Source: Ginglymostoma cirratum
Taxonomy: Eukaryota
Direction: 5' to 3'
NCBI GenBank assembly: GCA_024137785.1
Contig: JAHRHZ010000267.1
Location: forward strand, 14,335,454-14,399,453
DNA length: 64,000 nt
Each line of letters opens with the position of its first letter. The first letter of the stretch is position 1. Positions 13,880 to 61,090 of this stretch are shown here, piece by piece. Under the pieces are notes generated by a model. That model was not told where the DNA came from. It did no database searches and was given only the letters and a program-made list of their open reading frames with translations. The position numbers and the translations under genes were made by a program.

Positions 13880-15098
13880 GGTTAGCAAGGTTGGATCATA
13901 AGGAATAGAGGGAGAAGTATCCATTTGGATACAGGACTGGCTCAAAGGTAGGAGACATAGGGTGGTGATGGAGGGTTACTTTTCAGCCTGGAGGCCTGTG
14001 ACCAGCAGTGTGTCACAAGGATCGGTGGTGGGTCCACTGATTTTTGTCATTTATATAAATGAATTGGATGTGAACATAGGAGGTATGGTTAGTAAGTTTG
14101 CAGGTGACACCAAAATTGGTGGTGTAGTGGACAGTGAAGAAGGTTAATGCAGAGTACAATGGGATCTTAATCAGATGAGCCAATGGGCCGAGGGGTGACA
14201 GATGGAGTTTAATTTAGATAAATGTGGGGCACTGCATTTTGGAAAGGCATATCAGGGCAGGACTTTTACATTTAATGGTGAGGTCTCAGGGAGGTTCCTT
14301 GAAAGCAGAGTCCCAGATAGATAGGAAAGTGAAGAAGGCATTTGGTGTGCTTGCCTTTACTGGTCAGCGCGTTCAGTATAGGAGTTGGGAGGTCATGTTG
14401 CACTGTACATTGGTTGGGCTGCTATTGGAATACTCCATGCAGTTCTGGTCTCCCTGTTATAGGAAAGACGTTGTGAAACTTGAAAGGGTTCAGAAAATAT
14501 TTACAAGGATGTTGCCAATGTTAGAGGGTTTGAGCTATATGGAGAGGCTGAATAGACTGGGGTTATTTTCCCTGGAGCATCTGAGGCTGAGGGGCAACCT
14601 TATAGAGGTTTATAAAATCATGAGGGGAATGGATAGGGTAAGTAGACAAGGTTTTTTTTCCCAGGGTGTGGGAGTCCAAAACTAGAGGGCGTAGGTTTAA
14701 GGCGAGAGGGGAAAGATTTAAAAGGGACCTAAGGGATAACATTTTCATGCAGAGGATGGTGCATGTATGGAATGAGCTGTCACAGGAAGTGGTAGAGGCA
14801 GGTACAATTGCAACATTTAAAAGGCATCTGGATGGGTATTTTTTTTCTGAAGAATGGTCCTGACCCGAAATGTCAGCTTTCCTGCTCCTCTTATGCTGCC
14901 TGGCCTGCAGTGTTCCTCCAGCTCCACATTCTGACTCCAGCATCGACAGTTCTTACTATGTCTGGATGGATTTATGAATAGTTTAGGGGGACGCAAAATG
15001 CTGGCAAATAAGATTAGATTTATTTCGGATATGTAGTTAACATGGATGAGTTGGACTGAAGCATCTGTTTCCGTGTTGTATATCTCTATGACTCTATG
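13880..15098 (+). mobile_element. CR1 LINE, 5'-truncated ORF2 RT and 3' UTR, carrying a Penelope-type insertion
   Basis: SSVSQGSVVGPLIFVIYINELD...SKFAGDTKIGG; LEYSMQFWSPCYRKDVVKLERVQKIFTRMLP; terminal (CTCTATGA)-type repeats. Confidence 0.95.
14840..14960 (+). mobile_element. Short Penelope-type element with a hammerhead at its 5' end
   Basis: CTGAAGA-A-TGGTC-CT-GACCC-GAAA-TGTC at 14847-14874. TSD TCTGGATGGGTAT (14827-14839) / TCTGGATGGATTT (14961-14973) inside the CR1. Confidence 0.85.
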
Positions 15099-15564
15099 TG
15101 CTCCTAAACCATTATCCCTATGGAACTGGCCCAGAAAGGCAAATTAGCTCCTCAGTTTCTCCACAGTGAGGTGGAGCTATGGGTGGACAGGGTGACAAAA
15201 AGAGGACACTACCATCTCCTGTTGATGTGCAAGAGAGGCCATCCACTAGATTCTGCCAACCTGGACCAAAATTGTGGCCCATGTCAGTGCAGTGACCCAA
15301 GTGAAACACAATGGACAATAATGCAGAAAGGAGATTAATTATCTTCTGTGCACGAGAGAAGTAAAGGTCACCACCTTGTCTATGCCAACTCACGGTATCA
15401 GAGCCACAACTCACTGAATTTGTCATTGCCCAGTCAGCTCACTAGGGCTAATGAGCAACAACTCTCACTATTGCAATGTATCACTTCCACTCAATGGTCA
15501 CCCACCTCATTCTTTCAAACTACTAACCCTTCCTGTCATCTGATCTTCTTATCTACTCACTGCT

Positions 15565-16436
15565 ATTATGATCCCAGCTGACGTTCTTACTGCACAAGTC
15601 AAATCCCAGACTGAAATCTAGTTTGATAGATCTTATTTTGTGTATTTTATTTGGTTTTAATGAGGTGGTCTTTCACAAACATGAAACTTCCATTACACAA
15701 AAAAATTGAATAAGCCAAACTGTTTAAAAATTTCAAAACATGGGGTAAAATGCAATCCCATCAATCTCAACAACACTCCTTTACAATACTCCTGCCAGAG
15801 AAAATTCTAGAGAGATCTCTATCACATCTATATGATTTGATTTAACTGTGCTTCATTTTCTTGTCTTGAGAATCCGATGGCCTTTTTCTCAAACCTTCAT
15901 TCAATTCAGCTTAGACTTTCTCGGCTTCAAATAAACATTTCAGAGTTTTAATCAAACACTTCTGACCTGGAACATTTAATTTAAACTTCTTAACCTGAGG
16001 CAACGTCCTCCTTAACAGATCTAAAACTATCTCCCCTTTTCAGGAGCAACTATTTTACACATTCACCCCTCTGCAAATGGATCCAAACTAAAACTAAAAA
16101 CAAGGTCTTTTTTTTTAATTTTCCAAGGTATGTGTTGTTACCATAATCCAAAAAAGTCCAGAATTTTCTATTTCAAAACGTAATTTATTACACTGTTTAC
16201 TTTGGTGAGTCTTAAGCTCTCCCAATATAAACAAATCCCCATCACTGTCCAGAAAGTCTTTCTCTGATACTGCATTTAAAAAGAAAGCACCATGGCTACA
16301 AAAATACTTGCAAGTTAACAATTAACTTTAGATGCAGCTTCAGATATATACCAAATCCATATGCCACTAATTCAAAGTTTAAAAATTCAAAAGAAACACT
16401 ATTAAGATATGTATAAATCATACTCTTTACATCACA
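15565..16436 (-). mobile_element. Solo LTR (family A), inserted in an old L2-like relic
   Basis: TATTATGATCCCAG...TTTACATCACA, homologous to 6027-6970. Confidence 0.6.
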
Positions 16437-17465
16437 CTGGGAAAAGCTAATCTCCTCTCCTTCTCATGCATCATCATCAACTGCTTTTACATCCACTCCC
16501 AGTATACTAAACTCATCCTGTCGTTTCATTACAGGAAAAATTAGCCCACACTCTGGATTGGAATTGGATAATTCTCTTGGCTGACTGTGATGATACCCCT
16601 TGACCTTGATGATGTATCATTCACCTTGATCTCACTAAAGAGTGCCCCCCTTTGATTTTCAGACATGGCCAATTAGTTGAATAGATGCCATGTGTTTAGC
16701 ACACAGCCTGCTGGCACATGCTCTGGATGTAATGTTGACATTTCTGAACAACAGCATGGTCGCCTCTTTGACTTTACGGTACTCCAAACTGTGACAAGCT
16801 GCCTACTTCTCACTCTGTAGGCAGCAAAAATAAGTGAGTGTTAAGAAAGCAAGCTAAGAGCTGTAAGTGGCCTGGGAGTAACATATAAATCATAAGTGTT
16901 CCTGCATGTCAAAGTGAACTCCAGAATAGCTGAACTGGTGTTTGATTTTGCCCAAAAGCAGGTATTATGATGTGGTGGTTCGGTAATGCTGACTTGCTTG
17001 GATGAAGGGTGGAAGACGATAGTACCTATGGTGCATGCAGGGATATTGTGGTAAAGGTGGAGTTGGATGATGGACCAGAGAAACATGCAGTGAGCTGCTG
17101 TTGCTCTGACTTTCATAATGGGAGCTGACACCATCTAGTTTCTTGGGGAAGGCAGGAGAATTGGGAGCCACATAGAAACGAGATGAGATTAGATAAAAAT
17201 GAGAGAAGATGTAATGGAAATCAGGTGATCACCACTAAACTGTGAGATTCAGAACTTGCCATTTAAATCTTAATTGGACAATCAAAAATCTTTTTCTTGA
17301 TATGAAGAAACTGATTTTTGAATGTTTGCCATATTACCCCAACTTTCTTGCCATTGCCCACACCGCTCAAGAAAGTGGAAAATTCCAGCCTCTGTTGTTC
17401 TTTATCTCCTTCCTATAAATCCTTTTTTATTTTGCTTTTTGCACATGACAACACTAATTGATGCT

Positions 17466-17612
17466 AATCATTAATCATTTTCTGAAGAAGGGTCTCGACC
17501 CGAAACGTCAGCTTTCCTGCTTCTCTGATGCTGCTTGGCCTGCTGTGTTCATCCAGCTCTACACCTTGTTGTCTCAGATTCTCCAGCATCTGCAGTTCCT
17601 ACAATCTCTGTA
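17466..17612 (+). mobile_element. Short Penelope-type element with an intact hammerhead core
   Basis: Perfect 13-bp TSD ACTAATTGATGCT (17453-17465, 17613-17625). Body homologous to 3385-3470 and 60336-60430. Confidence 0.9.
17478..17512 (+). ncRNA. Minimal type I hammerhead ribozyme (Penelope-associated)
   Basis: CUGAAGA (17482-88), extra A, stem II GGGUC/GACCC, GAAA, palindromic ACGU in place of stem III, GUC cleavage triplet (17507-09). Activity not shown. Confidence 0.75.
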
Positions 17613-19904
17613 ACTAATTGATGCTTCCAGGTTTACCCTTCCCGGATTAGACACCGTAAAACTCAGCAAGAAATTTGCAATCTGGTTGAAGTGCCCTGTC
17701 GTTTATTGCCCTGGGCAAGAATGCCACAGATTCCTGTTGAGATGCTGTACTATATCAGTCTTAGAATAAGAGCCCACTCAAAAACCCAGGATGATTCAAA
17801 TGGCAGCATCAGCAAGGTAAATGTTGAACAACATTCCTTCACCACTGACCACAAAATCTGGGTAAATCATGTTTCCATACTGAATAACAAAGTTATTCTG
17901 AAATAATTTACAGATGAAAGTTATCAAAAAGCAGATTATACACTATTTAAACATTCTGTAGTCTAAGTACCTGAAGGTTTTCCTGATTGATGCATTGTGC
18001 CTTTTTTAAACCTCCAAATAAAACCTTTTGACACTTACTGCCACATATCCTCCTTCTTTGAAGGAGGAGACACATTTAGAGCCAAAGATTTCTCAACAGT
18101 CTCATCAATCTTGGTCTGCGATAAACCAGCAGGAGATGCCTGTCAGTTAACAGAATAAGTCCTGTTAGTTATTCCCTCCCCTGTCCCACTGAGACGGACT
18201 GCTGTATTCATGAACAGTTTCATCCTGAATTAACAAGGTCTCCTCCAAGGTGTGCTGCTTAGTTCAGTCTACATAGAAGGTTTAAAACTCGCTTCTCCAA
18301 ATAAAAAATTGTTAGATTCAGCAGCCTTACCGGTCAATGTGAAATATATATTTTAAAAACGTTCCTTCTTCAAAACTGGAACCTTAGTCTTTTTTCACCA
18401 AACTTTCCTTTAAGTTTCTTCCAGGTACTTTAGAATGCGTATGTCAATGTTTTAAGAAACTTGTCAAAAGAACCAGAGGTAAGGCGAGGAGCAAGCTAAA
18501 TGTATTGCCAAATGAATGATGGGAGGAAGTTTGATAATAGCATCCCAAATGGAAAGGGTTAACTATTTGAAAGGGAAAAGGTCGTGTTTGTCTAAGGAAA
18601 GAGAGGTTAAAGTTACTAATTAGATAGTTATTTTTCAACGAGATGGCATATACATAAAAGTTCGAATGGCATCCTTTTTTGCAATATTATTCTGTGATTG
18701 GTTGCAAAAGAATGTGAAGGTGGATGAAGAATAGGGAAAAGAGAGTAGAAAAATGAGAGAAACAAAAAGGAGAAAGAAAAACACGTTGCAGAGTATTAAG
18801 TGAATGAGGAATCAAAAGTCAAAGTAAACCAAGAGACACCATGAATCAAAAGGAAACATACTGTAAAAAGAGACAGAGACATTGAACACATAAGTATGAG
18901 AGCAAGAACTACTTATGAAACCTGTGTTAGTTAACCTATTGAAGACAACATCATAAACCAAATACCAAAAATAATTTTGATAGTAGTTCAATATTTTTAA
19001 ACCCTATGCCATAACACAAGTCACCTGGAAATCAGAAATTAAACAAGAGCTTTTCTCCTAATTGAATTCCTACCAGCAGTGTCAAAGGATCCATGATCCC
19101 TCTTTCCTTGCTGCGTGTTTAATTACTTGTCCAATGATAATGACATGTGTGTGTGCGTGGCCCCTCCTGAGTTGACAGGAGGACAACAAATGGCAACTAA
19201 AACATTCACATCTCTCCCCATGGGGTCCTCAGTACAGCTGCCCTTCTGCTTGTTGCTTCTCTGCACACACGCACATTCACAGATGGCCCAGCTTGCAGTG
19301 GACACGGATTTTGATCATATCCTTCTCTGTATATATAAAAAAAAGAGCTTACTGTAGCAAAGCATCTGTACCTTTGCCAATATTTATTTGGCAACACTGC
19401 CGGTTTGAACAAAAAAAATTCCTGATGTGTTAATTTCCAGAACCAAAGGGGAGGCTGTTCAAGCTTGAACAGTACAATAGTAGAATTTGCAATGTGCAAT
19501 TGTAGCCTCAAATTGTTAATCACGCATCGTTCAGTCAGCAGCTTCCATCATCTGGCATGAGTTTAATTTAACATCTTGTGAGTGGGTGTGCATGTGTATT
19601 TGTGCAAACAAATGAGTTAACCCACAGTATTTTTTGAATACCAAGATATGGCAATAATTATGTATTACAACAGAGGCCTGTAAATCAATTAGTTGTAGGT
19701 AATCAATGTTTTATATTGCTTTATCCTTTGTGAAATTGCAGAAGCATGTTGTCTTCCTAAATCTCAGTCCCTACTCTGTTTTGAAATTGATCACAGAACA
19801 CAACTCGTGCACTCTATTCTTATGTACATTATTTTCCTCTCTTCCTCATGCAAGATCTGATCCTCCTCTCCTGAATGCAATGATTTGTGTCAATGTGTAA
19901 AGAA

Positions 19905-20260
19905 ACAAAAGAAATACATTTACATTTACACAACTCAGGATGTCAACAAGTGTTTTACAACCAATTAAGCATGTTTGAAGTGTAGACATTACAATGCAAG
20001 GGAATACAGCAGCCAGTTTGAGCAGGGAGGGTTCTACGAAGAACAATTCAGTAATACGAAGATAAATTACTGTCTGTGTGTGTGTTGGGAAATAAACAAG
20101 ATGCTTTTCTTTGGACAATGGACTGTGATTTTTACCTCCACTTGACAGGCCATACTCCTTCCACGCAGTGCTGGAAAATGTTTTTGTTTAAGTCTGTTAG
20201 AGTGGGACATCAAACCCTAGCTTACAGACTTTGAAAGGGCAGAGCTATCTGATGAGAAAT
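19905..20260 (-). mobile_element. DeuSINE (SacSINE1/AmnSINE1-like), decayed
   Basis: Resembles the reverse complement of the Deu-SINE layout: tail TTTGAAGTGTAG...GCAGCCAGTTTG, core GATTTTTACCTCCACTTGA, head GAGTGGGACATCAAACCC (B-box). Confidence 0.6.
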
Positions 20261-20699
20261 GACTGCTCCCTACATTCAAAAGAAGCCTCTTCTATGGTAA
20301 GCACAAAATGTTAAAATGGTTGCTTAGACACAGCCCACACATATACTTTTCTAGTCAGAGTTTTATTTCACTTACACAACACAAAACTCACACATGATTA
20401 CTTGTTCACTGTATACGTACACTCGGTCCCTCTGCCAATTTACCACTAATTAACATAGAATAATCATCTGCTCCCAAGTTCCATTTGGGATCCAGCATCC
20501 CTGCCAGACCCCTTTTACAATTTCCCCTTTTATTCTTTTGAAAACATACATGCAATAATGAAAAACTAGCAAAAATGTTTTTAAAAAATGGCAATGTATT
20601 CTGCAGAATGCCATTGTATTATATTCCTTTTTTAGCGTATATTAGAGTTTCAAACGCCTTTTTTCCAAAATTTCTAATAGTTCAGAGTTCGTCCTTTCT

Positions 20700-23000
20700 T
20701 CATAAAACAGAGAGCTCACTATTGCTAGCCACCTATTTTGTGATTTATCTGTTCTTCAGCATCTGTTTTAAAACTACAATGTTGATCCTTGCTTCTTTTC
20801 AGTTGTACCTTTTGTCCTATATACATCGACCCATAATGACTAATCACTAATGTAATATTCAATGGGCTTTGCTGCAAATTCTTAGTGTGGATAGTTTATG
20901 TTGGTGCAGCTAATAACTGACAGTTTGATCAGTCAAAATGTTATTTTGTTGATTACTGTGTAATTCCTTTCACACATCCCACTGCTAAAAGAGCTTTTTG
21001 CTGCTCCATTCATAACTATTATGTTCATATCAGCACACATATATCTAAATTCATGGTTAACATATATCCCCACATAATCAGTGAGAAAATTTGTTAGTGG
21101 TCCATTTGCTCCGTATTACATTACATTGTCCTTTTTTTAATCATTACTATGTATTATCATCAATGAGCAAAAATGGGTTGCCAAATCCATAATATATAAA
21201 ATTATTCTTTTTATTTCGATTCCATACCTTTAAAATCATAGCCACTATCTCATTGAAATCCTCCCTCAAGAGTAGCCTTACTTATTGGTATCCTGCGTAT
21301 TTCTATTTCCACTATCTCTTATGTAAGGTTCTTATACCCCTCATCCCTTGTTCCTGCATGCTTGATGAAAACTTTTAACCATTTTTGAAGACAAGCGGTA
21401 AAATTGCCCATGTAGTTTCAATATAATTAAGTTTTCTTTCTTCTAAATTTCTTCCACCTAATGTCAATGTCACTTTGTTAACTTCTTTAATACAGAGGTT
21501 ATGTTCCATTAAAGGAATACAATCAAGTCCAATTTGTGTGAATTGCACGTTTACAGATTTCCCAAACACAGTGGCTTTGTCATTTTCCATACCAGTTTGA
21601 TCTGTATGTATATAATGAATAGCTTACTTAATAATAATCATTAATGTTTCTCTGGATGTTATATTTATGTTTACAAAATGATTCATCTCAGATATGATTC
21701 TGGCTATTTTACACTGAATGGCAACTCTTTTGAAAGATTTCAGATCCCCAAATCTGAAAACCGTGGAAACCTCAAATTCTTCACTACTCAGAGAGTCTAG
21801 GTGGCAACTTAGTGAGTTTATTCCGCATACTGCAGATGTGCATTCACAGTCTAATACTGCACAGTTGAAAGGTTCTGCCACCAACACATGCATCACTGAA
21901 TTGAAACTTCTTGTGACTAATATAATGTCCTCCTTTAGATCCATATCTCTGTCTTCTTCTGAATTTTCCATTTTGTCTTTAATCTCAAATGTTCTATCAG
22001 ACCATTTAGGATGGGAATAAGTTAGCTTGGATGGCTGGTTTGCAACACAGGGTGATGTCAACAGCAAGTTCAATTCAAGTACTGGCAGAGGTCACCAAGA
22101 AGGTCCTGCTTTCTTAACCTCACCCCTTCCCTGAGGTGTGGTGGCTCTCTGGTTAAACTCACCACCAGTCGTCCCCCTCTCTAATGAGACCAGCCCTGTG
22201 GTCCTCAGGACTGTGGCAATTTTACCTTTTACTTTAGTTTTTGGCATTATTATACTTTTTAACATACCTGAATTTGATTGCCTACAACTTGGGCATTTCT
22301 GAATCTCATTCCTTTTATTCTAATTTCAAATTCTCTTTGCTTCTCAAAATTGACAAAAGCACTTTTGTCCTCATTTCTCTTAACATTCTTCTTTCGCTTA
22401 CAACCTGGGTCTAGACAGCCTTGTCAGCCCATTAACATTGGTCCTCAGTTTTTGTCATTTGACTGATGGCTCTATTTGCATGAATGCTGCTGAAAAGGTA
22501 CAAATTCCAAGGATTTTTTATACTGCTTCCAACATTTGCTCCAGCAATGATTGTTTATCTGTGAATTTAAGTTCCACCAAAAATAAAAATCTGCCTAAAC
22601 TCAATACTTTGGCACTGTCTAATAGTTTAAATGACAGCATAGTCTGGGGAACTTCCAAGTAGTATTTCTGCAGTCTTGCATACAATCTGTTGAATTCCAT
22701 TTTATAGTCTTCCGGAGAACCATATCCCCTTTACCCTGAATCTTTCAAACTATGACCATGCCTCATAAGCAGCTGGTAAATCATCTTTTTGATATATTTT
22801 ATTCATGAAAATTAATATGCTCTAAAACCCTTTATCCATGTCCGTATTATCAATCTCTGAATACATTGCTTCTTCTTCTGCTATTATATGACAATGAAAG
22901 AGCCATTGACATACCTTGCTTCCTCATTGATAAAGGAGCAATGTCAGTCCACACAGTTACTTGATTCTTCCATGAGTCATTGAACAAGCAGCAAGTTATA
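20700..23000 (-). mobile_element. Decayed Ty1/copia LTR-retrotransposon internal region (GalEa-like gag-protease-integrase)
   Basis: Minus-strand motifs in order: gag WKNQVTVWTDIAPLSMRKQGMSMALSL and EFNRLY..LQKY..EVPQTMLSFKLLDSA; protease AVLDCECTSAVCG...FRFGD; integrase EFRYMCADMNIIVMNGAAKSSFSSGMCERNY. Integrase follows protease with no RT between them, which is the copia order. Confidence 0.75.
22010..22232 (+). mobile_element. tRNA-derived SINE (family B) inserted in the copia element
   Basis: A-box-like GTTAGCTTGG, B-box GTTCAATTC, core CCTGAGGTGTGGTG..GGTTAAA. Homologous to 24040-24240 and 42512-42728. Confidence 0.7.
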
Positions 23001-29265: not shown

Positions 29266-31479
29266 TCAAATTCTAACATCCCGCCTTCTCATCTCCACTC
29301 TGAACATTCTGTATTCAACTTAGTTCTCAGTTGTATTTTCTACAAACCAACTGTCATAAGCGCACTTTCTCTTCTTTACCTTAATTATTTTTCTATTTAT
29401 GGCATCGGGGGAGCTCTGGCTTTGTACTACTTTTCTATTTTAAGAAAATGTACCTTGATTGTGTCTGAAATTCCTCTTTTTCAAACATGGCCCATTGTTC
29501 AGCCCTGATCTGATCTCACCCTATTTTTGTTGTTTCTGGATCTGAGGGTCTACAAAGGGTTAATACTGAGAAGTGCCATGAGCACCATCCACACTAAGTA
29601 TTTTATAAGGTTAGAACAGCTTACGATCTTGAAGGAGTGAGATTAAACATTGGGATCTTTTCAAAGTCTCTGGTGGAATCTTATACGGGTTCTAAATGAT
29701 ATGGGATCTGGTGGGAAATCTGGGACATTCAAGTCCAGCAAGCCTTTCACGACGTCAGGAGCAACATGTCGCATTTTCCACCAGAGTTGAGATGAGATTT
29801 TCATTAGGGAATGGTGAGGTGCCTGTAAAAGGACTATTGCTGATCGTCATGCTGAGTTGCACCTCACTAATATCAGGACATACTCCAAGGCTGTGGCCAC
29901 ATGCACCTCATGTTCATGGTCATTGCAGACTTGTACCAGCTGCTTGATACCATCGTTGCACATCTCCAACTGTCTTAAAGTATACATCTGCACAGTGATG
30001 CTACATTCTGGGCAGAGGAGCATCATTCAGTGCAACACTGCTGGAAGAGTGCTTTGTCACAGAGTCAGGCACCCAAATCACAGATTGGGCCAGGCTGTAT
30101 ATCTCATTTGCTCTCTTAGCACTTACTCGGTTTCTACCCACCTGGTTGCCCATAGTATCATTGCCTTTCGCTGCCCCGCCTTGCCATACCTTTTAGTGCT
30201 TTGTCTCCTGAGCCAGAGCATAAAGACTCTGTTTTACAAGCTTGATTCTCAGTGCAGACACAGCACCAGGCAGTGTCTGGTCTTGGTCAGCAATTATTGG
30301 TCTTAAAGGTCTGACACAACTGCGAGCACTGCATTCTATTTAACCTTTAGGCATTAGTTTATTGTCTGCATTGCTGCTCCATGTTGCAGAGTGGGAAGTA
30401 AGCTACTGCTACTGGACTGTGTATGGGCAATGGGGAAATTGTAGCTGATCATTACCTTGGCAGTTGTGTTCTAACTTTCCAAACAAACAGGCATTGCTAT
30501 TGCATCATAGCTTTAATGGGGTTTGCTCCTTATCCTGCATGAAATGATCAGGGGCGTTTGTGGCAAGGAGCAGCAATGTGCATGATATAGTAATGATGAA
30601 GGATCACACAGAATGCAGCTCTGGAATGTCCTGTGAGGAGACTACTGTGGGAGCCTGTGCATGGCTGCTCCTCTAGTTGGGTGCCTACTGGCACCACCCT
30701 GTCTCCTTGTGAGGAAGGCACACTTGGAGTGGGATCAAAGTTTGTCACCCTGCTGTTGCCTTGCAGTTGGTGCTGAAGTCCAATGACTAGAGCAATAGAG
30801 GATAGGCTCGTGCCTATCCAGCAGATCCTGGGACTGCCAGACCTGGCCTTCTGACAAACCTGCCATCTGCTCTAGTGTCAGCTTGTGTGTACTGATATTG
30901 ATTGATGGTTGATTGTTGACACCACAGGGTCCTCTCATGCCTGTGGCTGAGCCGATACCTGGTCTCTGGCAGCCATCCGAATGCCAGGGGTCTGGGGCAT
31001 TTCTTTCTCAACCAGATGTGAAAACATGGCATTGAAGCGTTCACCAGTAGGTTTACCCAACTCTAACCTAGAAAACATACCACTAAAATGTCAATATCTG
31101 AGTTGGCGGGGGAGTACAGCCTTGCTGGAATTTTCCCTGAGACATCCATGTTCTCTTCCTCAGAGGTGGGAAAAGCAGTCTCTTGTGGCATGGCCTTCTG
31201 GACCATGGCTACTGTGAACAAGACACCAAAGAAAGAATCTAGTTACTAAGTGACTAAGGCAAATGGGACTAGTCCATTTCAGGAAACCTGGTCAGCATGG
31301 ATGAGTTGGGCCAAAGGGTCAGTTTCTGCGCTGTATGACTCAATGACTCTGGAAATTGTGAGATATTAAGGAGAAATTCACATTGGGATAATGGAGAACT
31401 AGCATAACAATGGAAATTGCTTCTTACTTGATTGTTTGGACATGAATGTTTCAATGTGCCCACAAGAGCAGTTCTGGCC

Positions 31480-32604: not shown

Positions 32605-32949
32605 AGTCATAGAATCATAAAATCTCTACAGTGTGGAAGCAGACCATCTGGCCCATCAAATCCACAGTGACCGTCTGAAGAGCATCCCTCCAGACCGACC
32701 CATCTCCGTAACCCTGCATTTCCCATGGATAACCCACTTGACCTGAGCATCCCTGCACACTATGGGCAATTGAGCATGGCTGATCCACCTAACCTGCACA
32801 TCTTTGGACTTTGAGAGGAAACCAAAGCACCTGGAGGAAACCCACGCTGACATGGGGAGAATGTGTAAACTCCACACAGTCGCCCAAGGATGGAATCAAA
32901 CCCGGTACTATGAGACAGCAGTGCTACCCTCTGAGCCACCATGCTGCCC
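32605..32949 (-). mobile_element. HE1-type V-SINE, full length
   Basis: Minus strand has the GGGCAGCATGGTGGCTCAG tRNA head, the V-domain TGTGTGGAGTTTACACATTCTCCCC...GGGTTTCCTCC and a CR1-like tail with CTATGA repeats. Confidence 0.9.
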
Positions 32950-36900: not shown

Positions 36901-37403
36901 ACTGGAAATAACAATGTACTTTTAATTGCCATTTCACATCTTCTTCATCCTCAACTAAAGCTGCACATACCTACTTCAAGCACCTCTTTCTGACTTCATT
37001 GCATCACCTGTCTTCAAGTCAACTTCTGTCTTTCTCCATTCAAGAATTGCCAGCAACCAACCACAGGTGTAGGAACTTGAGATTTGAAGAGGAAAAGGAG
37101 CGATTATGATGGAGTATTCTCTCCGGATCTCGCAGTTGCCATACAGCACAAACATGTTCTCCTCACTCAGGATGACCAGGATTCATGCTCCTATTCCAGT
37201 TTCTCCAACAGTGCACTTGATGCTCCATGTCAGCCAGCTGAGCCTGATGTCAACCAATGGTGAAATGATGAAGCCAAGTCTGGGTTTTCTAGGCTGAGAG
37301 CTGCTTACCGTTGTTTACTGCAGTCCCCCTCATTGAAAGTCAATGGCTTCCAACCATCCGTGCTGCAGCATGGGTGCCTAGTTAGAATTTGGATGTCATA
37401 TTT

Positions 37404-37948
37404 ATAGAGTCAAACAGCACAGAAACAGACCCTTCAGTCAAACTCATCCATGCAACCAAGTTTCCCAAACTAAACTATTCCCATTTGCCTACGTTTAGCC
37501 CATATCCCTCTAAACCTTACCTATACATGTCTATGTCCAAATGTCTTTTAAATGTTGTAACTGTATCTGCATCTATTACTTGCTCCGGCAGTTCATTCTA
37601 CATAGAAATCACCCTCTGTATAAAAACATTGCCCATCAAGTTGCCTTTAAATCTTGCTTCTCTCACCTGAAAATTACCCGTTGTTGTTTTGAACTCCCCC
37701 ACCCTAGGGAAAAGGCCTTTGCTATTCATCTTATCGATGTCCCTCATGGTTTTATAAGCCTCTATAAGGTCACCCCTCATCTACCTTTCCTCCAGTGAAA
37801 AAGGTCGCAGCCTATCCAGCCTCAGTGTATAACTCCAATCTTCCAGTCCCAGTCACATCCTTAGAAATCTCTTCTGCTCCCTCTCCAGTTTAATAATATC
37901 CTTCCTTTAACAGGGCAACCAGAACTGTACGCAATATTCCAGAAGTGG
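37404..37948 (-). mobile_element. CR1 LINE 3' fragment
   Basis: MRGDLIEAYKTMRDIDKMNSKGLFPRVGEFKT; highly similar to 45370-45915. Confidence 0.92.
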
Positions 37949-42510: not shown

Positions 42511-42511
42511 A

Positions 42512-45069: not shown

Positions 45070-45918
45070 CACTTGGGTCAATAGTCTGAGGAATGGCAGA
45101 TGGAGTTTAATTTGGGTAAATGTAAGGTGTTGCTTTTTGGTAAAACAAACAAAAGCAGGACTTATACAATTAATGGTAGGGCCCTGGGTAGTGTTGTAAA
45201 ACTGAGGGGCCTAGAGGTTCAAGTACATAATTCTTTGAAATTTGCATTGCAGGTAGGTAGGGTGGTTAAGAAGGCATTTAGCACACTTGTCTTCATTGAT
45301 CAGATCTTTGAGTATATGAGTTGGGATGTAATGTTGAGGTTGTGCAGGACGTTAGTGAGGCCTTTTCTGGAGTACTGTATGCAGTTCTGGTTGCTATGTT
45401 ACAGAAAGGATATTATTAAGTTGGAGAGGGTTCAGAAAAGATTTACCAGCATCTTGCCAGGAATGGAGGGTTTGACTTATGAAAATAAGCTGGATAGGCT
45501 GGGACTTTTTTCACTGGAGTTTAGGAGGTCGCGAGGTGACCTTATAGTGTTTTATAAAATCATGAGGGACATAGATAAGGTGAATAGTAAAGGTCTTTTC
45601 GCTAATGTGGAGGAGTTCAAAACTAGATGGCATATTTTTAAGGTAAGAAGAGAAAGATTTAGAAAGAAGACTAGGGGTAATTTTTTCACATAGAGAGTGG
45701 TTCGTGTGAGAAATGAACTGCCAGAGAAAGTGGTGGATGCAGCAAGAGTTACAACATTTAAAAGACATTTGGATAAGTTCATGAATAGGAAAGGTTTGGA
45801 GGGATATGGGCAACCGGAGGCAGGTGGGACTAGTTTAGTTTGAGAACATGGTCAGCATGGACTAGTTGGACCTAAAGGTCTGTTTCCACAATATATGACT
45901 TGATGACTCTATGGCTCT
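45070..45918 (+). mobile_element. CR1 LINE, 5'-truncated ORF2 C-terminus and 3' UTR
   Basis: 197-aa ORF 45100-45693: MEFNLGKCKVL...LVRPFLEYCMQFW...RGDLIVFYKIM; terminal TGACTCTATG repeats. Confidence 0.95.
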
Positions 45919-47078: not shown

Positions 47079-50000
47079 GGACAATCCCCTTACGGACAAT
47101 CTTTGATAGGATGAAGGGAATGAATGATTAAATGACAAAAATAATGATGGTGTAAGTCAAAATTATGCGATTAAAAAATGAAATATGGAATAAGGATGGG
47201 TCCAGAGGACATATAAATATTTAGAGAGGTCTTAGTAGTAATGGCAAGTAGGAAATGATTAAGAATTTAAACTGGGGAATGTGCTCCCAAGCTGCCACAT
47301 GTGCACCCATTGAGAGATTGTATATTTAATTAAAGTATTTATATCTGAACTCAATAAAATTCAGACATTGATTTAAATTTAACACTACCATTCCCAGAGC
47401 AGGGATGTGGCAGCAAGACGGAGGAATGAGCTGTTGCTAACTAATTCTTATAGCTTTCTCTGTGAACTGTCAGAAGGAGGAATGCTTGTCCTTGTTTACT
47501 CAATGAAGTCCTCTCACCTCCACTTTGTTGATGATGGGCACTTTCTTTTTTTCCACATTATGATGATGAACTCAACCCTGATTTCTCATTCCCTCTTCGC
47601 ATGATCATGAAGTACCTTCATCCCCTCTCCCCCTCCAAGCCACAAAGTCTCACTCTCTGTCTCATCAACTATTCTTCCATCCAAACATCGATCCCTTGCT
47701 TCCAGGAGTTATCAGATTCAAGAAATATACAGATGAGCCTTAGAGGTATGCATGATCCAACAGTGACCTCAATGGTCATGAGGGAGGCAGAGAAGGTTGG
47801 AACTGAAGTAACTTAGCTCAGAAATGTATACTGAAATATCCTTTCATATGGTATAAAATAAACACATTTTGGATAAGTACTATCATTTCAAGAAATAGTT
47901 TGAGGGTATATGACAGCCATACTAAAATATTTTTCATCCTTCATGATTCCTGGCTTCTAACAAACCCTGATCATTTGGTCATCCTGCAATCAACCTTCAT
48001 TCTTGTCCCTATTCTTGCATGTGCTCACAGAGCCCCTTCCTCGTGTCCCCTTTTGAAGGGATTCCAGCTGTGGTCTTATACCAGTGGGAGATGGCCATAT
48101 TGTCAATTTAGACGGCTACTTGTCTAGAAGTCGAGAAAGCAAATTGATGTCGGACCACTAAGTTCATCAGAACATCCGTAGTCTCAGACTTGCAGGTCCT
48201 TTTATTTTCCTGCAATTACCCCATAACCTCTCTATTTTCTTATGAAAATTGTTAGATGTTGGGTGGGATGGCAGTGGTGATGTTTTGAATGGAAGAGTGG
48301 ACTGAGATGTCATGGTGAAAACATTTTTTTAAAACACTCCAAGGAGTCTGGTTGCAGTAGGAAAAGCGAAGAGACAGCTGAAGCAACTAAGAAACTTGAC
48401 CTTGGCCTGGGTTTGATATATAAAAAAAAATAGAATTACAGGAAAAAAGGAGAAATGATTAAATTCTCAGCACTGACATCCTTCACCATGATAAGTGTGA
48501 AAATTCACTGCACATATTTAAAATTTGATATTACTGCCAGAACCAAACAGTTTTTGCTAAAGGCAATGTGAGCTGACTGATGTAATATTGGTTGTGTAGA
48601 TGTAGAACTGTGATTTTTAACCTCACCCCCCCCCAACTAAAATCAACTTTTGATTAAATGAATGTGTGAAAAGAAAAATGTATCAGAGAACTGTTCCTTT
48701 ACACTTGAAGTGCAAATGGTGATGTAGTCTGACAGAATGAGCACTCAACTCCTACAGTTCTGTGGAGGAAAGAGGTGCTGATATCTTCCCTGTTTTCCAC
48801 ACAATATTCTCTGAATTGCAAACTAATCCTGGATTTCCTCTGTTAATTACTATTAATCATGATCTCTTTTCACAATAAACAGATGTTTTTCTTTGTTGCT
48901 TGGCATTGTTCCTACATTAATACTTTACCCTATTCCAAGCACTTTGTGTGGCGTGCTTGTTCAATAAATGTTTGAAAGAGAAACTTAAAAGACTTGCCTC
49001 TTTAAAGAATATAAGGTTAACAATACAAACTATTATTAAATATACTGACACAGAATACTTCAACAAAGTTTTTATTCTTCCCTTCTAGAGCTTGATATAT
49101 ATACATGACACTCCTTATCTAAATAACCTTGAATTGTTTCCTTTGACGCAAATCCCTTTTCTGACTTTTTTAAGCCGCAGAAGCCAACCGGGAGTAATTT
49201 ATTGAGATGATGCTACTTAATCAAAGCAGACATCCTGATTTATGAATAAGTAAGCTGTGTACTACCTCAATTATTGTGGATTTAAGAGGAGTCCATCTGT
49301 CGATGAGGATGCCTTAGCTCCCTTTTCAAAGTAACTTTTAAGTTTTTATGTAGACAACGGAGAGAATATATTGTGCTGGTACAGGGGAGGTGATGCCTGA
49401 GTGAGATAATTGCTCGATTATTAATTCAGGAAACACAGCTAATGTGCAGGGGACATGGGTTCAAATCCCATCACAAAACCTCTGAGCCAAGAGGCTTGGG
49501 TTTAGGTCTCACCTGCTCTAGAGATGAGAGATCATATTTCTGAAAAAGTTGATTAGGACCTACCTACATTATGTTTGTAAATGCTAATAATCTGTCCAGT
49601 CATGGAAGTAAATTTGAAAAGGGCATTACGTTTCTATAAGTGAATCAATCAGTTGGATTCTAATTGTCTAGATTAGGATTGAAAACTCTTAATATGAAAA
49701 ATTGACTTAATCTCAGCTTTATTGATTCACGTAACCTTAAGAATGTTGGAAAAGCCATGAATTGTTTTTTAAAACTGCTTCTGTCACAGAATGAGTATTG
49801 CATTGTGCTTAATGCTGCTGATGTGATGTTACTGTGAGATCTCAGACAGAGTTACCTGATGGATAGTTAGCTGTGTGGAGAAATTGCAGCATAATCGGGT
49901 AACTCTAGTTTATAGACATCACTGCAAACATAAGCCTCAAACTGTGAACGAACCGGACAATGTGTGAGAATTAAGAGCCTGGATAAGGAATTCACAGGAC

Positions 50001-54085: not shown

Positions 54086-56489
54086 GCATTTCCCTGTTAA
54101 TACAGATCATTAATTGCACAAACAAGCATCAATATGTGTCCCAGGGATGTTGCTAGGATACTTTTCTGATCCCACAAGTTTCAGGACTTCAAAGATGCAC
54201 AATGTAAATTGGTAGCTATTCGGTATATTACATCTAACTGTGCAGCTATTAATACACACAATCACTAAAATTCTGCCAGAATGTGGAGCTGTTGGAAGGT
54301 AAAAAATCTTAAATAAATTTCAAGGGTTAAGGATTTAAGTAGTTTGTCTAAGATCTGTCCAGCTGCATGTCACATGTTTTTGTTCCTTCTTAACACTTGA
54401 GGCCTTTTCACTTCTATCACTGACGATGTACCCACTATACCATCAATTCCAAATATCTTGTCAAAAATGCCTAAGGGATTACAACATAGTACAACTCTAG
54501 TTTTGAAAGGCAGTATCCCTCACTGCAATGACAATTCTGTTTCTCAATCCTCTTAACATGCTGAAAATTAGTGTCTGAATTTAGAAACAACTCATGCTCT
54601 GGCTTCAGTCTCACCGGACACTGAGGCTGAGACATTATGCACTCTACTCACTTGTGACCTCAGAGTTACAATTCACAGAGGACACCTTCATCTCTGTTCC
54701 TCTGAACTGATTTCTGACTTGGGTCTCTCGAGGTTAAGGGAATAAATTAGCTTAGCACTTTAGCCAGCTGTATCACTTAAGCTCCCTAGTGAACTTGTTT
54801 TTAGCTTATTTTGTTCTATACCAATGCCACATAATGTGGATTCTTCCAGTTGAAGAACATCATATTAAAATACTATTAAATGGATTGTTCTCAGGATCAG
54901 TCACTTGTGTCATTCATGGGAAACACTTAAATGAAACAAGAAATTGGGTCATTATTGTACTTTATCTTAAGGAATAATGCAGGAGAGATTTTGTATAATG
55001 TTATGTAACCTGCAGCAACATAAATGCTTACACAAGTACATTTCAAATGCAATCAGAATAAAAGGATGCACTGCTAACATATTGTAACTGGAAAATTGAT
55101 CCCAGCCCCGAATGATGCTTTGTCTCCAATATTTTTTAGCTTTTATCCCAAATGTGAGCTTGGCCAGTTACAAAGACACTCACTTTTGAATGGAGGATAT
55201 TGTGATCAAATCCATTTTGGAACACCTGAATTAACATCAAACTCCAACTACAATGATAGGGACGTGCTTTATTTCAAATAGGATGTTAAATGATATCTCC
55301 TAATTACAAAGATCCAAAGGCACACATTGTGGAGTGTATAAAATTGTACTGTTGGAAAGCCAGATGTTCCATCACAAAAAAAACCTTTTTGGGTTTAGAT
55401 GTGAATGAAAGGTGTTAAATCACGGTGCTCCAATGTCATGGCTAAAACGAAGGAATGAATTTAAATTGTATTCTAAGGCATAGACATTCTGGTCATGATA
55501 AATTATGGATGCAATGACTTCATACAGTTCATTGAGGTCGTGAAACCGCACTCCAGTTAAACTGCCCTTGAACGTGGCACCAATTTCCATTCGTAATGCT
55601 TTGAGTAGCCATTAAGTTGTTGGACTTTTCATCTGAAGTCAAGGTTAATATGGAATTATGTTCTGAGGTCCAACTGAAACTTTTCATTGAAAAAAAAAGG
55701 ACAAAGGTTGTACCACGCTCAGACTTGCTCATACAAATTCTCTTTGATGTGTTTCAAGCACTTAATGGAAGCTAAAAAGAGGTCAAATTATTCACTACAG
55801 TTTTTACTGCCCTTATGGATGCTTGGTAATGTCACAAAAAAGAGGTACCACTCAATCAGATTTATATCAACGGTGTTGGTCCAAAGGAGCTGTCAGAAGA
55901 GAGTTATTTCAGCTGTACTCCTATACTTCTTGGCATCTGCTCACTGCCTGTGTTCAAGATGAATAATGACTTACTTTGAGACTCTCTAATTCCAAGCATC
56001 AATAATTAACCAGGAAGAGTGTTCTGCTAATACTATTGTATGAGGCAACACTTCTCCTTACTTAGCACGTCTTCAAAACAACCCAAATACGAGAATACAT
56101 GAGACTAAGTACAGACATAAATCCTTTTAAGTAGGATTGAACGTTGGTCAAGTTAGATTGCCAATATGTACTTCGCTGACACAAAGTTAGAACATAGAGT
56201 CTATAAGAAATAAATCAATCAAATAGTCAAAAATTACTTCATCTAAATTTAATCGTCAAGTCCCAGAAAAGTACCTGAGCCTGGTCTTGGACAGGGACGC
56301 TACTCAGTAAACCACAAGATCTCGACATCCTTAACTGTCATTAAAGTATGGTCAAATTAAGAACTTGAGAGCCAACTTTTAATGTACAGTCAATAATTTG
56401 GAATAATATCCATGTGTTTATAGAAGCAGTTTATCTTAGTTTAATGCCGTGCAGATTTGCAATGCATAAACCATTTCTCATCCAGAAAA

Positions 56490-56750
56490 AGATGATGCTT
56501 ACTTTACAGTTAAAGGTTAAACATGGAGGTCTTTGGTCCCATCTGGAATCTCATTGACACATTGCCCCTCAACAACTTCATCCACAACCACAGTGTCATG
56601 CTCTGAATGTACATTAAGGCATGCAGATTCAGCTCACCTCCATCTCTCTCAACCCTTCCACCAACCCTAATTTGTCACAGTCCTTTTCTGACATTTTGTA
56701 CTGGATGAACAAAGATACTATCCAATTGAGTATAGATGCCTGAAGCCTTA
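56490..56750 (+). mobile_element. L2 LINE RT relic
   Basis: Decayed YADD region followed by TTTTCTGACATTTTGTACTGGATGAAC...CAATTGAGTATAG; similar to 63800-64000. Confidence 0.4.
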
Positions 56751-57499
56751 ATGAGGGGCAGCATTTGTTGTCAAATTAGCAACGAGTTCAATGGCACACA
56801 TTGATATCAATGTGCAAATAGTACAGCAACTTTGGCAAAGGATAACTGTGCAGCAAAACTCAAAACGCATGAATTTCCAGTCAGATTTGCACCATTCTAC
56901 TGTTAGATTCACAAAAACAGTGCTTCATCATCTGCGGTAAAATGGAAACACATTGAAAGGCATGTAATTCCACCATTTGTGAAGTAGGGACAATTGAAAT
57001 TCCCACAAAAAAGTTAACTTCATTCCAGTTCAAACCTAAGTACCCCTTTAATGGCATGAGAACAATTATTCACTGCCAACTAATCTCTCTGGTACTGTAG
57101 ATTACCTGTTCTAAGTATGGAGCCTCATTCCTTCAGCTTTAACTTGTGAAGATGTAAAATAAATTGTGTGAAATCTTAGAGGTCTGAACAACACGGGCTA
57201 TGGAGAGATGAGTAAAAGACCCAGGTGAGAAGTCTAGTTATGCCTACCTTGATGTCAAGAGAAACTTACTGCATGTTTTAGGCATTTGCTGAGTGGCAAG
57301 GTAAGTTTCTCTCTAGCCAATTAAGGGGAATTATAGCTTGTTAAACACTTGCTAAGTGTATAACTCACCGCTTTTGATTAGCAAACATGTCAATAAAGCT
57401 AGACATCAACAATTCTTGACACGGAAGTTAATGTGGGTAGCTGGTGACTTCAAGTCACCAGTTCCTGCAAAGGACCACCATATTGGACACTGAGAACCA

Positions 57500-57945
57500 A
57501 CACAGAATCTTTGAATCTCTACAGTGTGGAAAGGAGCCATTCAGCCCATTGAGTCCAATCAGCCCATCGAGTCTGCACCAACACTCCCAACAGCACCCCA
57601 CCCAGAACAAAAACAGAAGTAGCTGGAAAAGCTCAGCAGACCTGGCAGTGTCTGTGAAGGAAAAATAAGAGTTAACATTTCAGGTCCAGTGACCCTTCCT
57701 CAGAACCTCTGTTCACAAATGCTGCCAGACCTGTTGAGCTTTTCCAGTTTTTCTGCTTTTGTTCCTGATTTACAGCATCCCTAGTTCTTTTGGATATTAT
57801 TTAGCACCCTACCCAGACCCAACCTGCTACGCTATCCCTGTAACTCCGTATTTAGCATGGTTAATCCACCTAGCCTGCACATCCCTGGATACTATGGACA
57901 ATTTAGCATGGCCAATCCACCTAACCTGCACATCTTAGACACTCT
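57500..57945 (-). mobile_element. HE1-type V-SINE 3' part, interrupted by a Penelope-type element
   Basis: Matches 32605-32810 on both sides of 57607-57802. Confidence 0.85.
57607..57802. mobile_element. Fully assembled inverted-repeat Penelope-type element (second subfamily) with a minus-strand hammerhead
   Basis: Arms 57607-57652 and ~57712-57765 are imperfect reverse complements. Minus 57706-57671 reads GUU-CUGAGGA-A-GGGUC-ACUG-GACCU-GAAA-UG-UU-AAC. TSD AGCACCC(C/T)ACCCAGA at 57592-57606 and 57803-57817. Confidence 0.85.
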
Positions 57946-58689
57946 CCTTGGATACAAGCCACACGCACCACACATCCATGGACATTGGCATTTGACATTC
58001 AGCAGCCTCTAAGAGCTCTGATGACACATCTTCAATGAACTTATGGTGCACTTCTGCTCTTCAACACTTTGGGCTGCACCTACAAATATCATTGTATTGC
58101 CACTGCAAGGACACTGTGTGCTCAGGGACAGCCATTCAATTGATGGACTGCCTCTCAGGGCTGTTCAGTTGTTATTATAGCACTTACTTACTTTGAAACT
58201 ACCTGGATGCTCACAGCATCCTAACCTTACATTGACATGCCTTGCATTTTTGTGTTTTGAACCCCTCAGCCAGAGATACCAGGCTCATATTTCTCCTGTA
58301 TTGTTTAGCGCAGACACAAAGCTAGGGAGCTTATTATGATTGCCAGCAAGCTACAGTCAAGTCAAGAAGCGAGCTTTTGTTCAGGGACAGTCGGCACTGT
58401 GAGTCAAGGGTAGCCTCCAATAGCAGCCCTTGGGCTTGGACTTGGTCACAATGCCACTCGGGGCAGTCTGATACAAGATCTTCTTCTTAAAAGGGGTAAA
58501 TGCCCGAATGTTGGGCAGCTCATCACCTGACTTGATTCTTTCTGCCCAAATGGAGCCTATTTTCCTCCTGAAATCAGAGAAAAACAGGCATTAAGAGTAA
58601 TGAAAGTGGATAGTACTGCTGTTACTTTTAGTAAAGATGGGGATGTGTCCCAATTGAGCAGGCAGCACAGAAAGGATTCCAGGGTTAGA

Positions 58690-59070
58690 GCTTTTGGACA
58701 TTACGTTAGGTGGCAAGAATGGAAATGATAAAGCACGAAACTGGGTGGGAAGTAGGTACAGGTACAGTAGCAGTCATAGAGCGAGTGTGAGGAATTGGAG
58801 AGAAGTTGTTCGTACTTAAGCTGTCAGAGTGAAAAAGGTCATTGATCTTCTTCCTACATTGCTGCATTCCTCTAGGCTGAGACTCCAGTGGCCCAGGTGC
58901 CAACTTCAAACTGGACTGCCATAGTCTGGTCTTATGGCTGTCACTAGCCGGAGGAAGATGAAGTCCTGCCTGTGCAACACCCCATTCAGCAGGACCTCCA
59001 GGTCCCTGGCCAAAAAAAGAGTGTATTAATTTCCCCTTGTCGTGCCATTTCAGGGGAAATATCAGGCAGC
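58690..59070 (-). mobile_element. PIF/Harbinger-type transposon relic (Myb/SANT-like ORF)
   Basis: RGMQQCRKKINDLF matches the QC.KKW.DL helix of Harbinger-associated Myb/SANT domains. Confidence 0.6.
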
Positions 59071-59916
59071 TTGAAGCACAGCTCCAGGCTGACTGTGCTT
59101 GTCCAGATGCACAACAAGCTTTTTAAAGGTGACCCTGGCATCAAGGATGCCAGTCAATTCCAGGATTTTTGATAAGTGGCATGTTGTTCAGGAAACATTG
59201 CTTGGCAGGATGGGAGTAGAATTGGACAAAAGAGACACCAGGGTGCAGGGTAATTATTTGATAATGCAGCATTGATAAAGACAAGATGGGAAAAGCCTCT
59301 CAGCCTTGTGGCAAAATATCCTCCAAAAACCTTGACACAACTCAAATGTAGCCAAAAACAAAGATTTGGCCAGTTATATTTAAACTTTTCATTTATTCTT
59401 TCCACCTTTGTTTTCGCTAACTGTAACTGTTTTGACATTGAATTCACTTACTCTAATTTCCAATTACTTCTCAATTCTTGCTGTTAAATTTGCAATCTTC
59501 TGATCTAATTGTTAAAGACATACACATGAAACAGGCCAGTTCACTCACATGATCATCTAAGTGCCTGCTTTCCCTTCGCTGTGAGGTTATCAATTCACAA
59601 TGACCTCACAGAAAAAAATTATGGAGTCTAATTGTTTACAATCAATTATGAAGCTTAATTCATGGCAGGTGTTGTTCAATTGCATGTCTTAGTAAGTGAC
59701 AGCTCATTGTCTTCGGTCCTCACTACAAACTGAATTCCCAATCCTGCCAATTGCCTGACCTGGCCAATGTCTGAGACTGAACCAGACTGTTAACTGCGGT
59801 TAAAATTGTATCAGAGATAAAAGGTACTGCAGATGCTGGAGAATCTGAGATAACAAGCATGGGGCTGGATGAACACAGCAGGTCAAGCAGCATCATAGGA
59901 GCAGGAAAACTCAACG

Positions 59917-60316
59917 NNNNNNNNNNNNNNNNNNNNNNNNNNNNNNNNNNNNNNNNNNNNNNNNNNNNNNNNNNNNNNNNNNNNNNNNNNNNNNNNNNNN
60001 NNNNNNNNNNNNNNNNNNNNNNNNNNNNNNNNNNNNNNNNNNNNNNNNNNNNNNNNNNNNNNNNNNNNNNNNNNNNNNNNNNNNNNNNNNNNNNNNNNNN
60101 NNNNNNNNNNNNNNNNNNNNNNNNNNNNNNNNNNNNNNNNNNNNNNNNNNNNNNNNNNNNNNNNNNNNNNNNNNNNNNNNNNNNNNNNNNNNNNNNNNNN
60201 NNNNNNNNNNNNNNNNNNNNNNNNNNNNNNNNNNNNNNNNNNNNNNNNNNNNNNNNNNNNNNNNNNNNNNNNNNNNNNNNNNNNNNNNNNNNNNNNNNNN
60301 NNNNNNNNNNNNNNNN
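59917..60316. other. Assembly gap (400 N)
   Basis: Run of exactly 400 N. Confidence 0.99.
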
Positions 60317-60332
60317 CTCTTCCCCTCCCCCC

Positions 60333-60366
60333 TTTCTGATGAAGGGTTTAGGCCCGAAACGTTGAG
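60333..60366 (+). ncRNA. Minimal type I hammerhead ribozyme (Penelope-associated)
   Basis: CUGAUGA (60336-42), A, stem II GGGU/GCCC with a UUAG loop, GAAA (60356-59), self-complementary AACGUU (60358-63), GUU triplet, short stem I UUU/GAG. Confidence 0.75.
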
Positions 60367-60429
60367 TTTTCCTGCTCCTATGATGCTGCTTGACCTGCTG
60401 TGTTCATCCAGCCCCATGCTTGTTATCTC

Positions 60430-61090
60430 TGTTGACTGTGGTGTCTATTTGATTCTAAACTGCCATTGTCCTCCCCAACTTCAAGACAGTAAACATCCAC
60501 TTCTGTAAAAGTGCCTATTTCAGCCCATCTGATGCTGAAATTCTCTTTCCTGGTTTTGCTGTCTCTAAACTCGACTGCGTTAATTATTTTCTGACTAGCA
60601 TCGCACATTCCACCTTACAAAACTTCAGTTCATCATTCTGCTACCTGTATTCTAGTCCCTGTTCCCCAGCACCCTTGTATGCTCTGACATACATTATTGC
60701 TTGGTCCAGCATCATTTCAATTTTAAAATGATTATTCTTATGCTCAAGTTGTGTCCTGGCCTAACCTTTCCATATCTCTGTTATCTCTGTCAGCCCAATA
60801 TCTGAGATCCCTAACTCTTGCAATTTTGGGTCTAGAATATCCCTGATTGTTACTGTCCCTTTGGGTATGACAATGCCTTCAACTATTTAAACCTTAATTT
60901 TTGAAATTCTCTCCCCATATCATTCACGTGCTCTCTTTGCCCTTTTAAGGTGTTCTTTAAAATCAATGCCTTTGGCCGAACTTTTGGTAATTTGTCCCAA
61001 AATCTCTTTGCATGATATATTGTCAAATCTTGTTTGATCATGCTCCTTTGAAATGCTTTTGTTAAACATGCTATATTGTTGCCTGGCAAC
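60430..61090 (+). mobile_element. L2 LINE 3' fragment
   Basis: DAEILFPGFAVSKLDCVNYFLTSIAHSTLQNF (SRLDYCN motif), then an L2-like 3' UTR ending ...GCTATATTGTTG. Confidence 0.7.

Follow-up and report, generated by a model that had tools for sequence, protein, structure and literature searches.

Hammerhead ribozymes in the end modules of Penelope-like elements (PLEs) have been a known arrangement since 2014. The minimal hammerhead described there did not cleave as a monomer and cleaved at a low level as a dimer (PMC4209133). Its function in endonuclease-bearing (EN+) PLEs has been called unclear (PMC8557442), and the rebuilding of the pseudo-long terminal repeat (pLTR) by PLEs has been called unexplained (PMC2377424). 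Here, we analyzed a 64,000-nucleotide stretch of the Ginglymostoma cirratum genome (contig JAHRHZ010000267.1, positions 14,335,454 to 14,399,453, forward strand; "the window"), in which a first-pass annotation had noticed short dispersed repeats with hammerhead cores and had interpreted them as a distinct, non-autonomous, retrozyme-like family mobilized in trans. We found that these repeats are the 5'-truncated end modules, comprising the hammerhead and a "tail," of autonomous, apparently Neptune-type PLEs. Judged from their genomic junctions, most of the short copies are probably "strong-stop" complementary DNAs (cDNAs), primed internally by the reverse transcriptase (RT) and extended as far as the RNA's capped 5' end.

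Several families of these elements were distinguished (AC, D, and further ones), in line with the subfamilies suspected before. Walking upstream from the copies led through a pyrimidine-rich 3' untranslated region (UTR) into GIY-YIG and RT coding sequence in families A and D; in family H, only the endonuclease end was reached. The autonomous partner that the first-pass annotation had proposed to look for by extending copies was found in the form of four natural intact open reading frames (ORFs) of 1,037 to 1,053 amino acids (L329-L332) among eight candidates. In two intact ORFs (L331 and L332), a family C core lies ∼245 nt past the stop codon, and the suspected link to Penelope was thereby borne out: the module present in the window terminates intact RT plus GIY-YIG ORFs. 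Pfam searches of the intact ORFs detected RVT_1 (E value of 8e-8) and GIY-YIG (7e-5), both above the cut-off, and the domain order in the single ORF, RT followed by a C-terminal GIY-YIG endonuclease, is that of EN+ PLEs. The same core was also present 406 nt before an internal methionine, ∼170 nt before the start codon, in 7 of 23 oriented loci picked by the ORF N terminus. Partial pLTR tandems, an inverted 5' copy, and a 30- to 40-nt tail likewise agreed with the structure of EN+ PLEs. The upstream walks lead into RT/GIY-YIG ORFs, and the same module terminates intact ORFs; the short copies are therefore the shortened ends of autonomous elements, in which the module makes up the 3' end and the 5' pLTR, rather than a separate family.

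The Neptune clade is described as having a Zn-finger-like CX2-5CxxC linker between RT and EN (PMC8557442). A C-x4-C-x2-C linker ahead of the GIY-YIG domain was present in families AC and D and absent in family H, and by this motif, which Nematis shares, AC and D appear to be Neptune-type. The closest named protein matches were from bamboo shark (77 to 79% identity), and the homologue matches carried no clade names. The N-terminal region of the ORFs (L329-L334) contained a Thr/Ala/Pro-rich repeat whose length varied among copies. Family H (L267-L296) is Poseidon-type, with a 7-bp stem II and a 5-bp stem I, and several of its copies share an end point located 269 nt upstream of the core. Penelope copies were often located within or against other Penelope copies, also inside GIY-YIG coding sequence (L001, L018, L083, L010, L140, and L324). 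Open frames of more than 2,000 amino acids were N-gap artefacts, and a frameshift common to several RT matches at a C run was a selection effect, the intact copies being in frame. On short decayed fragments, Pfam did not detect the RT.

The ends of the short copies were determined for tail-anchored copies (loci L085-L144 and L187-L266, contig C1), excluding from the 5'-end sample those that ended at a gap (27 of 194 AC and 4 of 184 D copies). Their 3' ends formed two clusters ∼35 nt apart, comprising 86 and 68 of 193 AC copies and 68 and 64 D copies; in Anolis, the "tail" has been traced to two internal RT priming sites (PMC11167929). The 5' ends piled up as well. Counted from C3 of the hammerhead, 57 of 167 AC ends fell at −6 to 0 and 83 of 180 D ends at −7 to −1, with 6 AC and 10 D ends between the pile-up and −60 and 41 AC and 7 D ends past −60. 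The pile-up, 3 to 6 nt ahead of the core, coincides with the first base of stem I, and in 60 of 141 pile-up copies an inverted arm comes before it. In the window, the four copies whose junction can be read all start at −3 to −5. Family H, whose hammerhead is sound, had 3 of 42 ends at the edge of stem I (Fisher P values of 3e-4 and 9e-7). Thus, the fold by itself is not enough to produce the pile-up.

Several lines of evidence suggest that the pile-up point corresponds to a transcription start site. Within the last 260 nt of long copies, the best TATA-like 8-mer was located at −31 from the pile-up A (itself at −4) in 21 of 25 AC copies and in 5 of 6 from D; in family G, 9 of 11 hand-picked copies had it at −29 to −31. 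The upstream sequences of AC, D, and G differ despite this common spacing; in family H, the TATA-like box is situated 13 nt farther out. G preceded the pile-up A in 12 of 20 copies of a sample (P = 0.004) and, genome-wide, in 2,058 of 4,828 AC copies (43%); at each of the two next positions outward, it was present in 30 of 100 AC copies (hand count). An extra G that arises from copying of the cap is known from work on long interspersed nuclear elements (LINEs); our literature search returned no paper on a cap-derived G. Among 30 loci picked by the ORF N terminus, the downstream core was visible in 14, and in 12 of these the pile-up point was joined directly onto ORF sequence (454 to 1,837 nt from the start). 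Eight of the 12 joins carried a G not templated by the ORF and three carried added A's, in one case a run of 13. Read in the order of reverse transcription, such joins suggest that the RT ran to the cap and then jumped to a shortened RNA's 3' end. Head-to-head copies were joined at the terminal AT in 17 of 100 listed AC junctions, which would fit two cDNAs primed on opposite strands that met at the RNA 5' end.

These observations can be combined into the following model. A TATA box at the 3' UTR end of an upstream partial copy would start transcription 4 to 5 nt before the core, so that the RNA begins with stem I. The RT-endonuclease would then nick DNA and prime within the RNA, either ∼95 or ∼130 nt in, and thereby generate the two 3' ends; this step is based on the genomic pattern found here and, for its mechanism, on the Anolis in vitro work. 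On reaching the RNA 5' end, where the pile-up is observed, the RT would often copy the cap as an extra G. The cDNA may then integrate directly or be joined to another cDNA whose priming took place on the opposite strand, yielding head-to-head copies; alternatively, it may jump to the RNA 3' end and continue, yielding long copies and partial tandems. The hammerhead would act on master transcripts, where its activity would require dimerization or the help of a protein, and linear RNA that has been cleaved would rarely serve as a template.

A number of points weigh against this model. The 5' ends are spread over −6 to −1, the mode being −3 (often after T) instead of −4, and D has many ends at −5, so that microhomology or trimming blurs the edge. 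Most of the sampled junctions are from a single contig; both arms of an insertion were counted as separate entries, and a few duplicates may remain. In family D, G preceded the junction in 7 of 11 copies of a small sample and in 31 of 100 of a larger one, without a clear excess. The TATA spacing rests on three related families, because copies within a family are not independent; a TATA matrix and an initiator (Inr) consensus served for the motif comparison. The RNA data analyzed comprised two raw RNA runs and one contig set, including 33,655 poly(A) reads from one run and one sparse library. In the poly(A) reads, the module was covered ∼30-fold deeper than the 5' UTR with both strands equal, as though genomic copies were transcribed passively, and neither start nor end peaks were found over the module. 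Finally, Penelope of Drosophila virilis is described as having a TATA-less internal promoter with a start well upstream of its intron (PMC2377424).

The strongest competing explanation is random 5' truncation; here, the pile-up would arise because the RT stalls at the hammerhead fold, or else from microhomology in T-rich sequence combined with endonuclease cleavage at an ATT-like motif immediately ahead of the core. It could account for the T preceding 17 of 19 AC ends at −3, it draws on an Anolis enzyme that cuts at the ATT adjoining its pLTR (PMC11167929), and 5' truncation is the rule for PLEs (PMC8557442). However, the pile-up also occurs in family D, which has AGTT instead of ATT, and is missing from family H despite its fold, and truncation predicts neither the TATA spacing nor the extra G nor the A-tailed ORF-to-core joins. 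We therefore regard it as unlikely, though worth keeping in mind.

Much less credible is a self-propagating non-autonomous family, retrozyme-like or resembling short interspersed nuclear elements (SINEs), that makes its own short transcripts and is mobilized in trans by the Penelope protein. The copies of family D are mostly short (7 of 180 extend beyond −60), target site duplications (TSDs) are clean, and non-LTR retrozymes have been reported in one cartilaginous fish (bioRxiv 10.64898/2026.07.22.740005). Against this, the short copies have no sequence of their own and lack the upstream TATA-like box of the long copies, and all families checked (AC, D, and H) run into an RT or GIY-YIG ORF. 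Head-to-tail tandem arrays were found neither in the window nor among 27 close same-strand pairs, which proved to be nested insertions, internally deleted copies, or single duplications. Moreover, the core CpGs decay: G12, which lies in a CpG, was changed in 15% of 101 AC and 30% of 93 D copies, and at non-CpG positions core and non-core changed at similarly low rates, consistent with neutral decay. The excess conservation of the core that had been anticipated among family copies was not found. This explanation is largely refuted; selection acts on the master elements rather than on the copies, which most likely arose as by-products of the RNA of the autonomous element itself and were dead on arrival. 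That hammerhead-cut linear RNA is the template and sets the copy ends is refuted in spite of the conservation of the core and both stems across families, since the cut site is not favored (within 1 nt, 5 of 123 AC and 3 of 162 D ends, about the level of an even spread) and uncut RNA is the substrate in the Anolis work (PMC11167929).

A cut and circularized RNA is, in contrast to a cut linear one, a possible template. Long copies cross the junction scarlessly, which may reflect priming in the 3' pLTR, a homology-guided jump, or a circle made by the hammerhead; the data fit all three. In its most far-reaching and decidedly tentative form, our proposal would be that Neptune-type PLEs replicate like a target-primed retrovirus. 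A TATA/Inr promoter would place the hammerhead at the RNA 5' end, and the RT would prime 95 to 130 nt in, run to the cap, and then have to jump, the 100,000-plus short copies being fossil strong-stop cDNAs. A pair of hammerheads would cut and circularize unit-length RNA, whose junction the RT would cross seamlessly, and a promoter-bearing pLTR would be rebuilt. The circularization of the template by the hammerhead is a weaker claim than the interpretation of the short copies as strong-stop cDNAs.

The fold itself agrees with the minimal type I hammerhead recognized earlier, with boxes, G10.1-C11.1, an NUH triplet, and a palindromic stem III. Covariation was assessed in 23 hand-selected copies representing families AC, D, E, F, G, and H, with boxes that were invariant by selection. 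Stems I and II covaried across families, as the proposed check of stem II had aimed to establish: 90% of cells were paired versus 74.5% after shuffling and at most 43% after sliding, controls that are flattering because the structure was derived from the same sequences. Two-sided changes occurred at 8 of 11 stem pairs, and stem I, which lay outside the selection criteria, displayed U-A/A-U/C-G swaps. Stem III is the self-complementary ACGU without a loop, so that a partner molecule is required. In computed folding, AC and G monomers folded best with the core paired shut. In AC, G, and H (L164, L325, and L083), pairing is possible between the first core box and the region of the cut-site triplet, which may be a common "off" fold. 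The RNA reads showed no pile-up of ends at the cut site.

Genome-wide, the core pattern, with inner stem II not imposed, had 105,142 matches in 4.36 Gb versus 30 for the reversed control, substantiating the very large population of ribozyme motifs that had been suggested. The tail patterns matched 162,870 (families A and C), 35,418 (D), and 1,377 (H) times, the family G core pattern matched 235 times, and 36,280 cores still had the 3' UTR directly upstream. All of these counts are of exact matches and hence lower bounds. More than 100,000 hammerhead-like motifs in this genome, almost all of them passive, are relevant to the mining of genomes for ribozymes.

Within the window, six insertions were delimited (Table 1), all with TSDs of 10 to 15 bp, which bears out the TSD assigned to each copy by the first-pass annotation. 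In a crude automated count, TSDs were detected for 9 of 23 simple copies versus 5 of 141 mismatched controls, with an inverted-arm filter that was too loose. A strict scan (CUGANGA, stem II of at least 4 bp, GAAA) yielded three matches, at 17482(+), 60336(+), and 57703(−), exactly where cores had been placed before; 10 dinucleotide-type shuffles gave 0 to 1 match each. The cores of two of the five readable copies were fully intact. For cleavage, the copies in the window would be poor substrates, given the stem I mismatch at 17482 and the GUU triplet at 60336. The one at 14847 was correctly located, but was not the readable intact core it had been taken for, having decayed at two positions (G10.1>U and C15.2>U), and that at 57703(−) showed CpG decay (C11.1>U and C15.2>U). 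The degenerate fifth core suspected on the minus strand was recovered in a heavily decayed state. An Rfam scan of the window gave no hammerhead match at E ≤ 10, which is expected for motifs without stem III. No PLE ORF remnant was found in the window by blastn and tblastn, in agreement with the lack of an ORF noted for the copies.

Table 1. Hammerhead-bearing Penelope insertions of the window and their parts
Feature	Position	Strand	Remarks
Family AC (A-type) short copy, hammerhead and long tail	17477..17612	+	5' end at pile-up point; TSD 13 bp, 17453-17465 / 17613-17625
Short filler 5' of the family AC copy	17466-17476		
Minimal hammerhead core, intact	17482..17509	+	Cut triplet GUC ending 17509; stem I pairs 2/4 in this copy
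Older AC-type short copy	14844..14960	+	Decayed core 14847-14874; 5' end at pile-up point; TSD 11 bp at 14827 / 14961
Family C head-to-head insertion, single event	59797..60428	.	N run 59917-60316 between inverted arm (−, 59797-59916) and sense arm (+, 60317-60428); TSD 10 bp at 59787 / 60429
Minimal hammerhead core, family C	60336..60363	+	Cut triplet GUU; stem II identical to that of the core ending intact ORFs L331 and L332
Family D fold-back insertion	57607..57802	−	Sense arm 57706 to 57607 (−) from pile-up point, core 57703-57674, inverted arm 57713-57802; TSD 15 bp at 57592 / 57803
Old D-like copy	9661..9818	−	Degenerate core 9798-9768; 5' end near 9802; TSD 11 bp at 9650 / 9819
Family C head-to-head insertion, only both tails readable	2941..3471	.	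Centre is N run 2985-3384; TSD 14 bp at 2927 / 3472

Both head-to-head insertions (at positions 2.9 kb and 60 kb) are centered on a run of 400 N's, which in the former contains the core or cores. The same layout with a central N run was also found elsewhere in the assembly, and such structures are a known problem for short-read assembly (PMC8557442). In the insertion at 60 kb, a private variant at the cut site, just after the core, is common to both arms (59911-59923 and 60357-60369), so that probably one RNA template gave rise to both.

Several further sequence features were noted in the window. Related LINE remnants with a common 3' end, which by their motifs we take to be of CR1 type, occupied 14176-15095, 37397-37944, 45074-45910, and 31257-31351; RT-like open frames at 14218-14685 and 45085-45693 within them had no Pfam match, and one remnant is the host of the older AC-type copy. 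A second dispersed short repeat family was present at 32608-32908, 57501-57557, 57834-57936, and 63003-63133, and the Penelope copy at 57.6 kb is inserted in one of its members. A faint additional D-like tail fragment was detected at 9376-9427 (−; E value of 0.002). A weak match to the transfer-messenger RNA model at 49401-49475 comprised a tRNA T-arm-like stretch only, probably the head of a tRNA-derived SINE. On the minus strand, 21624-22091 held a 155-amino-acid open frame without a Pfam match, possibly a decayed retroelement gag/protease piece.

Compared with the hammerheads first described in metazoan PLEs (Cervera and De la Peña 2014, PMC4209133), those of the shark share the type I core, the unpaired base before G10.1-C11.1, the palindromic 15.2-16.2, and a stem I of 4 to 5 bp. 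Thousands of single dispersed motifs in pLTRs, thought to derive from truncated PLEs, are also reported there. The numbers given in that work, ∼4,000 in coelacanth and ∼9,000 in Xenopus, contrast with at least 105,000 exact-core matches here, although the descriptors differ, and its main text contains no account of piled-up 5' ends or of transcription starting at stem I. PAc, a Poseidon element from Anolis (Frangieh et al. 2024, PMC11167929), resembles the shark elements in two 3' ends 30 to 40 nt apart that result from internal RT priming; extension on both strands is described for it as well, with no sign of cut RNA as template. Unlike PAc, whose hammerhead overlaps the start codon, the shark element encodes a protein that appears to be Neptune-type and has its hammerhead wholly within the 170-nt 5' UTR; the fate of the RT at the RNA 5' end was not followed in the PAc work. 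Descriptions of EN+ PLE units (Craig et al. 2021, PMC8557442; Arkhipova et al. 2013, PMC3846280) agree with our copies in 5' truncation, partial tandems, an inverted 5' copy, the tail, TSDs of 8 to 10 bp or longer, and, in one rotifer pLTR, a TATA box with an Inr-like motif. Head-to-head copies are attributed in those papers to self-priming on an antisense template; here, they would fit two sense-template cDNAs that came together at the 5' end of the RNA. The non-LTR retrozymes (Li et al. 2026, bioRxiv 10.64898/2026.07.22.740005) are likewise non-coding, hammerhead bearing, and pLTR derived, but are defined by tandem units with a hammerhead in each, in contrast to the single or head-to-head shark copies.

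The elements as such are another case of a known system, and it is the record of junctions that matters more. A literature search, with subscription journals, Repbase, Dfam, and supplements outside its scope, returned no description of a PLE 5'-end pile-up or cap signature. With the candidate start site at stem I, the putative cap signature, and the ORF-to-cap joins, both the rebuilding of the pLTR and the function of the hammerhead become testable in the existing in vitro system, for which young intact copies (L330-L332) are on hand. The closest mechanistic parallel lies in LTR retroelements, in which minus-strand strong-stop DNA is primed near the RNA 5' end, runs off at the cap, and jumps to the 3' end in the first strand transfer. 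The primer is a tRNA there and would be nicked target DNA here, so that failed jumps would be left in the genome; the likeness is one of mechanism, not of membership.

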